Position numbers and translations under genes: made by a program. Below, in pieces: positions 300-45,735 of a stretch of 47,287 nt of DNA. The stretch lies in IMG/VR virus record IMGVR_UViG_2870474514_000002; one strand, 5' to 3'. Every line of letters begins with the position of its first letter. The stretch's first letter is position 1. This DNA comes from a virus (Duplodnaviria; Heunggongvirae; Uroviricota; Caudoviricetes). The notes beneath the pieces were generated by a model. The model searched no databases. It was not told where the DNA came from and saw only the letters and a list, made by a program, of their open reading frames with translations.

Positions 300-901
300 T
301 TAAGGTTAAATTAATTATAACAAATATAATATAATTCCATCTTCGCATTAAATTTTAACCTTTAATCTCCACACGGAACAAGTTGCATGGGTGACTATAT
401 TAAGAAAACTTATAACAAATAGAAAATATTTACATTATAAACAAACCTAAAGTCATTGACTCTAAGATAATTCTGATCTATCGTTTTGGTAATTAACGTT
501 ACTTAGCAATCTTTCGAAATGAAGATACAAAGCAAATTGATTATCTTATTAAACATTATTTTTGCACTAATACTCTTTAAACTTTTAGCTCAAAAGTTTG
601 GTTTATACACCTTATTTTAAGATAAACAATATAGATAACATTAACGCTTTACAATGAACGACTTACACTATACTCAAGAAATATTATTTACTTATCTTCC
701 CTATTGCTATAAGTTAACATAGTGGCTTATGCCACTCTACTTTCATCATATTTTGTACGTTTATGTACTCGCCATGAAACTCTTTCATGGCGCTTTCTTA
801 TTCTCAATCCATAATCGTACTCTCTATCCTATTGCAAATCACGCCTCAACAAACTCATAACACATTTAAGTGATTATTACTAACTTACTCAAAAACAGAT
901 A

Positions 902-1510
902 TTATTCACAGGTGATGAGTTCTAATGAATTACACTTCGGTGCTGCTGGCCAATCAACATCAGGTGCAGTTGATGTATCAACACGGTTCAGCAACACCCG
1001 ATACTTCTTCCATGCTGCCAGCAACGACGCCTCTTCTTCCGTTGCGATCTCCAGATCCACAGCATCCTGAAGCGGCGCTATATGCTCACTGGCTACCTGC
1101 ATCAGGCTGTTTTTTGTTTCTTCCGCCTCCCGGATCCGGAACAGTTTTTCTGCTTCTGCATCTTTCACCCAGGCTGTGCCGTTCCACTTCTGAAACTCCC
1201 CTTCCGGGGATAACCAGGTGACATTTTCCGGTAATGGGCCAAGTTCAGAAATAAATAACGCGTCGCCGGAAGCCACGTCATAGACGGTTTTACCCCGATG
1301 GTCTTCAACGAGATGCCACGATGCCTCATCACTGTTGAAAACAGCCACGAAACCAGCCGGAATATCTGGCGGTGCAATATCGGTACTGTTTGCTGGCAGA
1401 CCTGTATGAGGCGGAATATATGCATCACCTTCACCAATAAATTCATTAGTTCCGGACAGCAGATTATAAATTGTTATGGTCCGTGGTTGTTCACTCATTC
1501 TGAATGCCAT
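902..1510 (-). CDS. tfaR: Tail fibre assembly protein (Tfa, lambda/Rac type)
   Basis: 202 aa ORF immediately downstream of stf. C-terminal [20 protein letters not shown] motif typical of Tfa chaperones. Start codon overlaps the stf stop. Confidence 0.85.
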
Positions 1511-30935: not shown

Positions 30936-31010
<75 letters not shown>

Positions 31011-31013
31011 ATA

Positions 31014-31089
<76 letters not shown>

Positions 31090-31980: not shown

Positions 31981-32271
31981 TCACAAATATCCCTCCTTTC
32001 TCCAGATTTCTTGTGTGCGAAAAACACCTTCTGCATGCATCAGGCGTAATTCTTCTTTGGTGTAATCGCTGGTTTTTACCCGCCCGTCGATTAGATCGTG
32101 GCATGAGCTACAGGCAATCGCCGCCTGCATATCGTGTGGTTTTGTCGCTGTTCCGCACGTTCCCGCCAGTCGGTAATGCGCCAGCACAGACGTTTCCGGA
32201 TCGTGATTGCAGTAGCCAGGAATTCTGACGGTGCACATCTGCCCCCGCGCCGCTTTACGTAAATCCACCAT
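31981..32271 (-). CDS. YbcO-like small Cys/His-rich protein (putative nin-region nuclease)
   Basis: 96 aa with Cys/His ligands (CTVRIPGYCNHD, CSSCHDLIDGR). ATGA overlap with the upstream gene. Size and composition resemble DLP12 YbcO, recalled from memory. Confidence 0.55.
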   Translation of the reverse strand: MVDLRKAARGQMCTVRIPGYCNHDPETSVLAHYRLAGTCGTATKPHDMQAAIACSSCHDLIDGRVKTSDYTKEELRLMHAEGVFRTQEIWRKEGYL

Positions 32272-32870
32272 TACGCAAACTCCAGCAGCTGCGCGGCCAC
32301 ATTTTCGACTTGTTCCAGAGAGGAAAATTTACGGAACAGAATCCAGTTCCACAGCACATTCAGAACAGATTTATAAACCTGCTGAAACTCGGTTTCGTCC
32401 ATATTCGCAAAAGCGATGGATTTCGCCCGACGCCCATGGCTACCGTCCGGATAAAAATGTTCGGTGTAAAATCCAGCCTGAATGGTTACCCACTCGCGAA
32501 AAGCCTCAAACGACTTTAGCAATGCCGTATCCCGGGTTCTGCGTGTCGCAACTGTATTCAGATATTGCTCTGCGGCATCACTCAGGGCTGGCGTGTGTTC
32601 CCGACCAACTGATTCGCACAGGTAATCAACGAAACCAGACAGCAGTTCTCGTTCGCGAGGCGTGATCGCCCCACCGACCGGAGTCCAGTAATCGAATCCC
32701 AGTTGCAGGAGTTTGAAAAAACGCTTGTGGAATGCGTAGTTACGCACACGCTTAAAATCAGCGTGTATCCACTCGCCTATTTTAATTTGATGCAGAAAAT
32801 CACAACTCTCCGGCGTCGCCGGGAGAAGTAAACCAGAAGAAGTTTGTTTGACCAGTTGTATATGCGCCAT
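32271..32870 (-). CDS. Nin-region phage protein of unknown function
   Basis: 199 aa ORF upstream of the YbcO-like gene, at the boundary of the AT-rich island. Confidence 0.5.
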   Translation of the reverse strand: MAHIQLVKQTSSGLLLPATPESCDFLHQIKIGEWIHADFKRVRNYAFHKRFFKLLQLGFDYWTPVGGAITPRERELLSGFVDYLCESVGREHTPALSDAAEQYLNTVATRRTRDTALLKSFEAFREWVTIQAGFYTEHFYPDGSHGRRAKSIAFANMDETEFQQVYKSVLNVLWNWILFRKFSSLEQVENVAAQLLEFA

Positions 32871-33150
32871 TTCTCAATCTCTCTATGGCGCAGTGCAGCA
32901 GATGCCAGTTGTTCAGGCTGACGAATAAAGTATAAATAAACTGGCTATGGTGTAAAGCCCCACATAGCATGAACAAACACTACATATCAAATAGCTGGTA
33001 CAAGGATAGAAATACGACACTTATTATTAAAAACGATTAGCTAAATTACATTTTAATGTTATGAAAAAGTTCTTTTTTATCATAACATTTCAATAAAAGC
33101 ATTACAGATGCAATCATCCCGTCATCATCAATTATTTAAGGTGGTTAAAC

Positions 33151-33237
33151 ATGGAAAATAACAAGTTTGCACATCTCGCTCCTTTTTTATCCGTAATCCT
33201 TTTCGCTTGTTGTTTTATATGGGCATTATTTTTATAA
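33151..33237 (+). CDS. Candidate small hydrophobic peptide (28 aa)
   Basis: ATG at 33151 with an AAGGTGG SD 6 nt upstream; encodes MENNKFAHLAPFLSVILFACCFIWALFL, one predicted transmembrane helix. In AT-rich sequence about 500 bp upstream of the YeaR-like gene. Hand-translated; not in the ORF track. Confidence 0.3.
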   Translation: MENNKFAHLAPFLSVILFACCFIWALFL

Positions 33238-33742
33238 AGTAGCCACATGATAAGTTGCTGGAATCATGTTTCCCACTCAAGTCATTAACATTTGATTAAG
33301 ACATATCTAAAAGGATGCCTTTACATTATTTGATGCATATATGATTTATTTATATGCACAGTAAAGGCACCCTGGGAATAATCAAGATTAATGATATATT
33401 ACTTATCCTATTCCCAACTGTCTTTTACCTGGGAAAACATTTATCGTTAAAAAATATATCATAAATAATTAAGCTGAAATTTCAGAACACAACTAATGCA
33501 CACAATAAGGTTCAGTAACATTAATCTATGTGGAATACATCGAGATTTCTTGATTAAGCTTTAATAACTTATTCCTAACACACAGAATGCATAAACCAAA
33601 AGCAAAACAAGTAGTTATACGAAAAACAACCATATTTATCCTATCTTCTCCTCTAATCAACATATCAATTATGTGTTTCATAAGAGCTTGACATAACTCC
33701 TCAAAAGGTGCATTTATAATACATGTTTTATAGGAGGTGGTT

Positions 33743-34081
33743 ATGACACACAAGAGAATTCCTAAAGATTGGGTAATCAAACGCTCAACTCCGTTCTTCA
33801 CAAAAGAGAACGTACCTTCAGCGTTATTAACACATCATAATACAGCAGCAGGTGTTTTTGGGCAGTTGTGCGTAATGGAAGGCACTGTAACATATTATGG
33901 TTTTGCTGATGAGAATACTACTGAACCAGAGATAAAAGTAGTTATTAATGCTGGCTCTTTTGCAACAAGCCCACCACAATACTGGCACCGTGTTGAACTA
34001 AGCGATGATGCTCAGTTTAATATTAACTTTTGGGTCGCTCCAGACTTCTCAGGCGAAAAAGTCTATAGCACCAAAAAATAG
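33743..34081 (+). CDS. YeaR-like protein (DUF1971, TehB-associated domain family)
   Basis: 112 aa from the ATG at 33743, with an AGGAGG SD 5 nt upstream. Motifs RSTPFF...P, GVFGQLCVMEGTVTYYGFADE, INAGSFATSPPQYWH and FNINFWVAP match my recollection of E. coli YeaR. Confidence 0.7.
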   Translation: MTHKRIPKDWVIKRSTPFFTKENVPSALLTHHNTAAGVFGQLCVMEGTVTYYGFADENTTEPEIKVVINAGSFATSPPQYWHRVELSDDAQFNINFWVAPDFSGEKVYSTKK

Positions 34082-34110
34082 ATGATCATATTAAAAATAC
34101 TTTAACAATC

Positions 34111-34148
34111 AGACCCGGCAGAGCTATCCTCGACGGGTCTCGTTTTTG
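34111..34148 (+). terminator. Intrinsic terminator-like hairpin after the YeaR-like gene
   Basis: Stem AGACCCG / CGGGTCT with a long loop, followed by CGTTTTTGT; about 30 nt after the stop. Confidence 0.4.
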
Positions 34149-34693
34149 TAAATATTTTGGTTCTACATTGCCAGGAGACTTCGACCATAAGAAGTAATCT
34201 GAATACTTAAGAAATAAATTTACTTCAGATTAATGAGCGCACCTTGCCGGACAAAGATAAGCCAGGCAAACGCTTTTTTTTAGCCAGTATGTAATCAATC
34301 AGAAAGTCGCTCCATAAGAACAACAACAAGGCAATAAATTGCCACCACAGCCACTATTGCTAACGCACACTTCAGAACCAGCACAACAATCTCCTGTTTT
34401 TGACGTATACATACACTGATAAATATGTGGCTTTGTACTCACTACTTCAATACACAAGTGTCAGTGGTGCGTAATCAAATAATACAGTCTGTTTTCAGCC
34501 AGGAACAGACATCAGGTAAAAGAATGAAAAACTATTTTGAGCTACATCATAGCTACAAGATTTCTGCTAATTTCAAGATGAGCAGGTCATTGCTGGCATA
34601 GGTGACCTGCCTATTAGTCATGATGATTCGAAAATTACGGTCGGCATACCATATATAGAAACGTTGTGACACTCTGTTGACGTAATGTAAAAA

Positions 34694-35362
34694 TCATTCC
34701 TGCCCTTCTTCTTTACCGTAGTGGAGTTGACCAATTTTGATAAGAGGGCGTCCCTGGGATTTGCGGTGTAAATTGGTATCGCGAAGTGAATACACGCAAC
34801 CACAATATTCCTGCTGATAGAATTGTTCGCGTTTGCTGATTTCAATCATGCGGGACGAGCCTCCCTGCTTGCGCCAGTTATAATCCCAGTACACCATGCC
34901 CGGATAATGTGCGACAGCTCGCCGTCCGCTGTCGTTAACCTGCTGCATATTTTTCCAGCGTGAAATGCCCAGTGAACTGCTGATCACACTGAAACCATTT
35001 TCAGCGGCGTACAGCGCCGTCCGTTCAAAACGCATGTCAAAACACATAGTACAACGCCTCCCACGTTCGGGCTCCCATTCCATTCCTTTGGCTCGCTCAA
35101 ACCAGTTGTCAGTGTCGTAATCAGCATCGATAAACGGTACACCATGTTGTTCAGCAAATCGAATATTCTCATTCTTACGAATCAAATACTCTTTCTGAGG
35201 ATGAATGTTCGGATTATAGAAGAAGATGGTGTAGTCGATTCCTGAGGCCTGAAGAGCCTCCATCACTTCACCGGAACATGGTGCACAACAAGAGTGCAAT
35301 AGTAGTTTGTTTGCCCCGTTTGGGAGCTCCAACTTAGGACGTTTGAAATCAGCAACTGTCAT
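34694..35362 (-). CDS. QueH-like protein (DUF208, epoxyqueuosine reductase family)
   Basis: 222 aa with the N-terminal [11 protein letters not shown] motif and later Cys motifs ([19 protein letters not shown]) that I associate with DUF208/QueH iron-sulfur enzymes. Confidence 0.7.
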
Positions 35363-35632: not shown

Positions 35633-35905
35633 ATGAAAATAGACATTAAAAATAAAAATGGGAATACACAACACCTGGACGTGTCATCGTTGATTATTAC
35701 GCTTAATAATGGGGAAACGATTGAAATCACAGATGAAAACAAAAGTCGCCCAATCGATATACCTGAGGGAGTTACAGTGTGGGGAGGCCGGGCTCCCGAT
35801 AAAGAAGCAAGCATAGATCAACTAAAAAAGACAACTCGTAGCATAGGAATATATCCACTAGCCTCCAATATGGTGCACATATTCCCTTATTCTTTAAAAA
35901 AGTAA
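35633..35905 (+). CDS. Hypothetical protein (90 aa)
   Basis: ORF in the AT-rich island with no clear SD and no recognisable motifs; could be non-coding. Confidence 0.3.
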   Translation: MKIDIKNKNGNTQHLDVSSLIITLNNGETIEITDENKSRPIDIPEGVTVWGGRAPDKEASIDQLKKTTRSIGIYPLASNMVHIFPYSLKK

Positions 35906-45359: not shown

Positions 45360-45554
45360 ATGAGATATGACAATGTTAAACCATGTCCATTTTGTGGTTG
45401 TCCATCAGTAACGGTGAAAGCCATTTCAGGATATTACCGAGCGAAGTGTAACGGATGCGAATCCCGAACCGGTTATGGTGGAAGTGAAAAAGAAGCACTC
45501 GAAAGATGGAATAAACGAACCACTGGAAATAATAATGGAGGTGTTCATGTATAA
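45360..45554 (+). CDS. ralR: Restriction alleviation protein RalR (Lar)
   Basis: 64 aa: MRYDNVKPCPFCGCPSVTVKAISGYYRAKCNGCESRTGYGGSEKEALERWNKRTTGNNNGGVHV, with a CxxC...CxxC zinc ribbon. Confidence 0.85.
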   Translation: MRYDNVKPCPFCGCPSVTVKAISGYYRAKCNGCESRTGYGGSEKEALERWNKRTTGNNNGGVHV

Positions 45555-45735
45555 AATTACCGCCACTATTGAAAAGGAAGGTGGCACTCCTACTAACTGG
45601 ACAAGATATTCAAAATATAAACTAACTAAATCAGAATGCGAAAAAATGCTCTCAGGTAAAAAAGAAGCAGGCGTTTCCAGAGAGCAGAAAGTAAAACTGA
45701 TAAATTTTAATTGCGAGAAACTTCAGTCCTCGTGA
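45547..45735 (+). CDS. ydaC: YdaC-like small protein
   Basis: 62 aa from MYKITATIEK, with a GGAGG SD 5 nt upstream; overlaps the ralR stop by 8 nt. An alternative start lies 4 codons upstream. Confidence 0.55.
   Translation: MYKITATIEKEGGTPTNWTRYSKYKLTKSECEKMLSGKKEAGVSREQKVKLINFNCEKLQSS

Follow-up and report, generated by a model that had tools for sequence, protein, structure and literature searches.

Does a 28-codon open reading frame (ORF) in an unannotated gap of an E. coli prophage encode a peptide, and, if so, what might so small a product do? The DNA analyzed here (hereafter, the window) spans 47,287 nucleotides and constitutes an E. coli lambdoid prophage of the Rac-like type. Its landmarks include ydaS/T/U/V-type replication genes, nin-type genes on the minus strand, tRNA-Gly and tRNA-Thr, and RalA, identified by its Rfam match as the sRNA antitoxin in the ralR/ralA type I system of Rac (Table 1). 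A gap of 872 bp, flanked by a DUF1367 gene and a YeaR-like DUF1971 gene, houses the ORF. RefSeq annotates no feature in this gap and its GC content is 29–33%; an earlier, sequence-only reading had placed the ORF in otherwise non-coding, AT-rich DNA. Strain AR_0374 showed 100% identity to an 870-bp query covering the gap (32871–33740).

The ORF starts with ATG and ends with a TAA stop codon at 33235–33237. Its Shine-Dalgarno (SD) sequence includes AAGGTGG (33138–33144), which is followed by the six nucleotides TTAAAC and then by the start codon. Our own reading of the sequence and of the ORF list agreed exactly with the ORF, translation, AAGGTGG motif and 6-nt spacing reported earlier. The gap contained seven ATG-initiated ORFs with 28 or more codons. 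When the gap was randomized 3000 times in a composition-matched, first-order Markov model, 15.6% of the randomized sequences held at least one ATG-initiated ORF of ≥28 codons behind a 5-mer SD. A hydrophobic translation is the default for T-rich DNA. We concluded that the ORF and its SD were by themselves not beyond chance, and that the case for this ORF being special would be a comparative one.

Table 1. Coordinates of the 28-codon ORF, its associated signals, and other features of the window.
Feature	Position	Strand	Remarks
33-codon ORF MKIQSKLIILLNIIFALILFKLLAQKFGLYTLF	519..620	+	YncL-like; outside the cassette
tRNA-Gly and tRNA-Thr	30936-31089	-	window landmarks
DUF1367 gene, first of the nin region	32271-32870	-	left border of the gap
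Weak terminator-like counterpart, CGTTT-8-AAGTG then TCGTATTTCT	33018..33035	-	stem needs G-U pairs
Nearly invariant 43-nt block TTATTATTAAAAACGATTAGCTAAATTACATTTTAATGTTATG	33021..33063	+	5' boundary of the cassette; 0.19 substitutions per column
Candidate sense -10, TATTAT	33022-33027	+	start of the 43-nt block
Leader hairpin AATGTTATGA...TCATAACATT	33055..33089	+	predicted in every lineage
Candidate antisense promoter: -35 TTTCCA (33157-33152), 15-nt spacer, -10 AATAAT (33136-33131)	33131..33157	-	
Shine-Dalgarno sequence TAAGGTGG	33137..33144	+	6 nt before the ATG
28-codon ORF MENNKFAHLAPFLSVILFACCFIWALFL, predicted single-pass membrane peptide	33151..33237	+	sequence, ORF list
DUF1971 (YeaR-like; YeaR/TehB-N-like) cargo gene	33743-34081	+	Pfam E = 2.7e-26
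Epoxyqueuosine reductase QueH gene	34694-35362	-	after the DUF1971 gene
90-aa hypothetical gene	35633-35905	+	cargo, replication-to-nin interval
RalA sRNA	45553-45731	-	window landmark; Rfam gathering-level match

Of 5426 complete E. coli genomes, 1174 (~22%) had a relative in a sensitive blastn search (query 33040–33340). One class consisted of near-identical copies, termed the F lineage, and included the window copy. The other class showed 72–75% identity and aligned over 33042–33238 only, stopping at the stop codon; in one of its subclasses the alignment began ~20 nt before the ATG. E. coli 042, a carrier of the S lineage, had the same 28-codon frame with a diverged peptide, MENNKSAHYAPFLSVILFVLCCVWALFL. 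The SD of the relatives was TAAGGTGAG or one of the weaker forms TAAAGTGAG, TAAGGTAAG, and TAAGGTAGT, and was weakened to TAAAG in a lineage adjoining DUF968.

Two pattern scans of IMG/VR extended this sample. The scan via the N-terminal codons of the ORF returned 130 copies, every one intact (130/130). The scan via the conserved upstream block, which was blind to the state of the ORF, returned 139 occurrences, two of them cut at a contig end; the remaining ~137 all kept the 28 codons with no indel and no stop, and two peptide variants were added. The frame was kept in every full-length copy retrieved from related prophages, which is where its loss had been proposed as the thing to look for. 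The sample held 47 distinct sequences of the cassette defined below, 18 ORF sequences, and 14 peptides. The median was one copy per genome, and there was no tandem duplication. Among 185,579 GTDB species representatives, a pattern scan matched only Shigella flexneri and E. ruysiae, and tblastn against 50,697 phage records gave four matches, all of them induced E. coli prophages. The family is narrow and confined to Escherichia and Shigella.

Comparison of these copies revealed the substitution pattern of coding DNA. The alignment contained 0 indels in the 84 nt of the ORF, versus 9 gap columns among 135 in the leader. The minimum numbers of substitutions at codon positions 1, 2, and 3 were 5, 11, and 22 (P = 0.0016), and 19 of the 38 variants were synonymous against 21% expected. 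An excess was present among transitions (13/23 synonymous versus a fraction of 0.36 expected, P = 0.034) as well as among transversions (6/15 versus 0.14, P = 0.01), and pairwise pN/pS values were 0.13–0.45. The excess of third-position and synonymous changes was distributed over the entire ORF and was specific to the sense frame, the sole frame of the six that was open in all copies; an overlapping 38-codon antisense ORF gained stops in the relatives. The nine other gap ORFs of at least 20 codons served as controls, and six of them were broken in relatives that were 93% identical overall. The four differences between the window ORF and its closest lineage were all non-synonymous. These statistics draw on only 38 minimum substitutions in related sequences and are of moderate strength (P ~1e-3); at that level of significance, the kept frame, the lack of indels, and the frame-specific excess of synonymous and third-position changes together form the comparative signature of a protein-coding gene. 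The missing stops were not decisive, because the probability of zero stops among 38 substitutions was 0.08. We concluded that the ORF is very probably a real, translated, and previously unannotated gene for a membrane peptide.

The same alignments bear on an opposing explanation, in which the frame is untranslated, the conservation reflects a function of the DNA or RNA (overlapping promoters of the sense and antisense strands, a leader RNA or an antisense RNA, nucleation of H-NS on AT-rich DNA, or a recombination boundary of phage modules), and the open frame is a by-product. Conservation did peak in a non-coding 43-nt block rather than in the ORF: the number of substitutions per column was 0.19 in the block, 0.45 in the ORF, and highest in the mid-leader, at 0.94. 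The first codons of the ORF overlap a candidate antisense −35, and the stretch CCTTTTTTA (codons 11–13) was almost invariant with its third positions included. The occurrence of a chance ORF with an SD in 16% of random gaps, the indecisive absence of stops (0.08), and the weakening of the SD to TAAAG beside DUF968 all sit comfortably with a silent frame. What such a frame accounts for poorly is the sense-frame-specific excess of third-position and synonymous changes over the whole ORF, the 84 nt free of indels next to a leader that has them, the similarity of diverged copies that ends exactly at the stop codon, and the decay of the neighboring ORFs. We consider an untranslated frame unlikely.

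With its stop codon the ORF measures 87 nt, and the minimum gene length of Prodigal is 90 nt; the ORF is unannotated probably because it falls under the minimum length of common gene callers. An exact look-up of seven peptide variants in a collection of 15 billion predicted proteins found none of them present, and a full-text literature search for the peptide strings gave no match. Supplements of Ribo-seq work on E. coli O157:H7 Sakai contained neither MENNK, nor the ORF start, nor hokD; Sakai itself may lack the cassette. In the Qin prophage of K-12, rem occupies the position of the cassette and the cassette is absent, and K-12 Ribo-seq data are therefore unusable for this ORF. The ylcH gene of K-12 DLP12 was considered as an equivalent of the ORF and rejected, ylcH being co-oriented with ybcN. 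If the ORF is translated as we propose, it would be a widespread prophage gene of E. coli and Shigella, present in about one-fifth of complete E. coli genomes and missed by every annotation pipeline. More generally, comparative genomics alone can validate ORFs of 28–33 codons, and gene-length cut-offs probably conceal conserved genes.

The predicted product has 28 amino acids, a GRAVY of 1.41, and a best 19-residue Kyte-Doolittle window of 2.46. After a short polar N-terminus (MENNK), a hydrophobic stretch of 23 residues extends to the C-terminus, the profile of a small hydrophobic peptide with one predicted transmembrane helix. Across the 14 peptides, the invariant residues were Met1–Asn4, His8, Pro11, Leu13–Ser14, Ile16–Phe18, Cys21, Trp24–Ala25, and Phe27–Leu28; a second cysteine was always present, at position 20 or 22. 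By the positive-inside rule, the lone lysine near the N-terminus suggests an N-in/C-out topology. A lipoprotein signal peptide was rejected, since the LFAC ‘lipobox’ was not conserved (VLCC and VFCC in relatives). Searches of the Pfam, NCBIfam, and PHROGs profiles with the 28-aa peptide gave only noise at E ≤ 10, and the Hok/Gef profile (PF01848) did not match it.

The ORF belongs to a self-contained cassette of ~215 bp, in which it is preceded by the 43-nt block, a leader hairpin, and the SD, and which is located at the replication/nin junction of Escherichia lambdoid prophages. The block lies 130 nt 5′ of the ATG. The boundaries were clearest in the most diverged copy (L113), in which similarity ran from the 43-nt block to the stop codon only and the flanks were unrelated, its neighbors being a tail-fiber gene and an integrase remnant. 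When a 1.2-kb query from L113 was compared with complete E. coli genomes, no match extended beyond about a third of it, and the best matches covered only an integrase-like stretch at 77–80% identity. The cassette boundaries, which like the ORF, its conservation, its coding-type substitutions, and the promoter- and terminator-like sites described below can be observed directly, remained constant although the DNA downstream differed in at least four ways and the DNA upstream was in one case unrelated. In the commonest downstream context the neighbor was a convergent hokD, arranged tail-to-tail, with the hok terminator ~22 nt past the stop codon. Elsewhere, truncated hok remnants followed the cassette; in L013 the cassette had its own strong terminator, and in L113 the DNA past the stop codon was unrelated. 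In the window it is followed by an AT-rich spacer and then by DUF1971, which F-lineage cassettes always precede. A tblastn search of the window with HokD found no hok remnant, and the ORF is thus independent of hok. The variable contexts argue for a self-contained ‘moron’ at a variable cargo/defense slot. Cargo found near the cassette elsewhere comprised AAA/P-loop ATPases, an ATP-dependent nuclease, and DUF5677.

Other prophages carry, in the same slot, hok together with ATPase/nuclease defense-like genes. The terminator hairpin of hokD (CCCGC-N4-GCGGG; L002 3216–3240 and equivalents) was degenerate in many copies, and hok itself was truncated in several; a regular expression for a Hok-like motif matched 75 of 128 full-length downstream regions. 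Beside degenerate hok terminators or truncated hok genes, the 28-codon ORF was intact every time.

The downstream contexts also speak to a proposal of the sequence-only reading, namely that the ORF encodes a leader peptide for the YeaR-like gene. Such a peptide would control DUF1971 by attenuation or translational coupling. The ORF and DUF1971 are co-oriented, DUF1971 always follows an F-lineage cassette, and a scan of the window found no terminator-like site between them. They are separated, however, by a 505-nt spacer that has a 57-bp indel in close relatives, and no alternative terminator/antiterminator structure overlapped the ORF. Most copies have no co-oriented gene downstream at all: the context differs from that of the window or is convergent, as with hok, the L013 terminator, and the unrelated DNA of L113. 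Because the downstream contexts vary in this way, we rejected a leader-peptide role, which we regard as very improbable.

The spacer between the ORF and DUF1971 has features of its own. At 33317–33368 and 33371–33435, this AT-rich DNA carries a long nested inverted repeat (GCCTTTAC..TGCATATA..TATATGCA..GTAAAGGC) and, beside it, a 57-bp segment between direct repeats of CCTGGGAA; the 57-bp segment is absent in the close relatives L007 and L123. On the other side of the cassette, the strongest promoter-like site of the region (32929–32956, minus strand; TTTACA-16-TATACT, 10/12) is directed into DUF1367 and the nin genes. It was kept in all lineages with the nin flank, even where a 92-aa gene plus DUF968 replaces DUF1367. 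In a lysogen, one would not expect a constitutive promoter to precede the operon of the Q-type antiterminator.

In the window, the predicted leader fold was more stable than its shuffles (z = −2.6) and placed the SD and AUG in pairing with codons 5–9. The RNAalifold consensus for the leader (−11.4 kcal/mol) was weak except for one hairpin. Within the leader hairpin, 33 sequences had a G-U pair and 14 a G-C pair at alignment columns 38/66, a variation that fits a plus-strand RNA. The weak consensus, and an AGCGGTT/AACCGCT helix that occurs in some S-lineage copies only, led us to reject a conserved long-range structure in the leader.

A consensus scan found promoter- and terminator-like signals independently in several relatives. 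On the sense strand, only L002 had a promoter-like site within our scan criteria (TTGCCG-16-TATTAT); other S-lineage copies had weaker versions with TTGCTG or TTGTTG as the −35 by our own scoring, and the window has a poor −35 (TACAAG, spacer 17). On the minus strand, four copies (L002, L004, L013, and L113) had a promoter-like TTTCCA-16-TATGAT/CATAAT/AATAAT at the homologous position. The corresponding candidate in the window overlies the start codon and SD and, with its 15-nt spacer, falls outside the scan criteria. Three of these copies (L002, L004, and L013) also had a minus-strand terminator-like hairpin within the 43-nt block, CGCTT-TTAATAAT-AAGCG (8-nt loop) followed by a T-run, which sits ~90–120 nt downstream of the antisense promoter-like site; L113 had a compensatory stem, CACTT/AAGTG, without the T-run. 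A search for an antisense promoter, as recommended earlier, thus yielded a candidate over the start codon in most relatives, but a degenerate one in the window copy. In the window lineage the antisense spacer, the terminator stem, and the sense −35 are all degenerate. The signals are consensus matches in AT-rich DNA and are suggestive only; at that same suggestive level, they would together give rise to an antisense RNA of ~110 nt that matches the leader over its full length. Rfam 15 gave no gathering-level match at the cassette on either strand of the window and only chance-level hits (E ≥ 1) in 32700–34300, and the cassettes of L002, L013, and L113 had no match. Another antisense promoter-like site, past the stop codon (33253→33225), was rejected, its −10 and −35 being lost by eye in the L013 and L113 contexts.

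Candidate antisense signals placed in this way recall the organization of type I toxin-antitoxin loci, a resemblance that is suggestive only. Our best full explanation, held tentatively at somewhat less than an even chance, is that the cassette may be a type I-toxin-like module. The gene product would be a 28-residue single-pass inner-membrane peptide that inserts into the inner membrane and perturbs it. The leader of ~115–130 nt, able to sequester the SD by pairing, would limit how much peptide is made; most relatives would in addition rely on a cis-antisense RNA of ~110 nt, starting just upstream of the SD and ending at the hairpin inside the conserved block. Translation, membrane insertion, the sense and antisense transcripts, and any toxicity are steps that we infer. 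Of the functions suggested from composition by the sequence-only reading, a single-pass membrane peptide stands as the best reading, now backed by coding-type substitutions, and a type I toxin is possible, in view of the candidate antisense signals. More doubtful is the specific claim that the cassette represents an undescribed type I toxin-antitoxin family present in ~22% of complete E. coli genomes, with a 28-aa toxin and a cis-antisense RNA of ~110 nt over the leader. If that claim were true, read-through of the cassette or of hok would be antisense to the other, and two membrane-toxin modules could be RNA-coupled.

The known system nearest at hand is hok/sok (Hok/Gef; sok RNA, RF01794), which likewise has a small membrane peptide and a long leader in prophages, and to whose antisense RNA the candidate complementary to our leader would correspond; hokD is moreover the physical neighbor of the cassette in most relatives. 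In contrast to that system, the cassette showed no similarity to Hok (tblastn, Pfam) or to sok (Rfam), its peptide has 28 aa compared with ~50 for Hok, it lacks a mok-like overlapping frame, and it persists where hok is truncated or absent, the window included. Closer in size are the toxins of IbsC (19 aa)/SibC, ShoB (26 aa)/OhsC, ZorO (29 aa)/OrzO, and DinQ/AgrB. These short toxins resemble the 28-aa peptide, with its one predicted transmembrane helix, in having a single such helix, a tail with few or no charges, cysteines in some cases, and an intergenic location. As a group, type I toxins span the membrane, are small, and have no common sequence (PMC8309996), and the short E. coli examples have an sRNA partner and an intergenic location (PMC8309996; PMC3919570). 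IbsC, ShoB, and DinQ lack charged (positive) C-terminal residues, and the cysteines of type I toxins have been proposed to mediate oligomerization (PMC8309996). The present family differs in having no sequence relationship to IbsC, ShoB, ZorO, or DinQ, no tandem duplication, and an antisense partner that is only predicted.

An ORF that is intact throughout, even where the antisense signals have degenerated, is as readily explained by a harmless or useful peptide as by a toxin. Many E. coli membrane proteins of less than 35 aa are non-toxic regulators. We therefore weighed a second reading as a real gene, to which every argument for coding applies: a ‘moron’ peptide that binds a host or phage membrane protein and modulates it, as the small-subunit or regulator peptides AcrZ, MgtS, CydX, and KdpF do, or alternatively one involved in superinfection exclusion or lysis timing, with the antisense signals being incidental. 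This non-toxin role is a serious possibility, which we place only just behind the type I-toxin-like module and likewise at somewhat less than an even chance. The ORF remained intact despite degenerate antisense elements and a truncated or absent hok, and the invariant His8, Pro11, Cys21, and Trp24 suggest a specific interaction surface. Against this, no partner could be inferred because the neighbor genes vary, and the recurrent antisense promoter and terminator layout and the long conserved leader would be left unexplained. Among proteins of this kind, YncL, YohP, KdpF, CydX, and AcrZ resemble the 28-aa peptide in being shorter than 35 aa, in having one hydrophobic helix, and in having been overlooked by annotation before targeted searches. 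The peptide differs from them in that it matches none of them, is prophage-borne, and occurs in Escherichia and Shigella only. Membrane peptides this small either act as toxins in persistence, phage defense, and prophage maintenance or regulate transporters and sensors. Whether it is type I-toxin-like, as we tentatively prefer, or regulatory, the peptide would, if translated, add an accessory function at a known moron/defense hotspot of lambdoid prophages.

A second small ORF in the window gave related results. It was present as described earlier, with 33 codons and no SD. It had been called the weaker candidate, a description that holds for the missing SD but not for conservation, as this ORF is also conserved and is YncL-like, its score lying under the cut-off. 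Its match to the NCBIfam profile NF000537 (YncL, a stress response membrane protein according to NCBIfam) had E = 3.7e-5 and 23.5 bits against a curated cut-off of 35, with residues 1–28 aligned to profile positions 1–28 of 30. About 800 E. coli genomes had 74%-identical relatives, located at a Qin-type prophage end near ydfJ and tfaQ, in which all 33 codons were preserved. By eye from the alignment, the codon differences comprised 8 synonymous and 5 non-synonymous changes. RefSeq has no annotation at 519–620; one variant of the ORF is present in JGI and ENA gene calls.

Two minor observations concern neighboring annotation. Inside the minus-strand ORF 902–1510, the position assigned to tfa in the sequence-only reading, lies a gathering-level Rfam match to IS009 RNA (969–1167, minus strand). 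In the Qin prophage of K-12 MG1655, between ydfU and rem (L005 4307–4585, minus strand), there is a 92-codon ORF that is unannotated in MG1655 and that, judging by position and length only, appears to be the counterpart of a ‘hypothetical protein’ that other strains have annotated beside the DUF968 gene.
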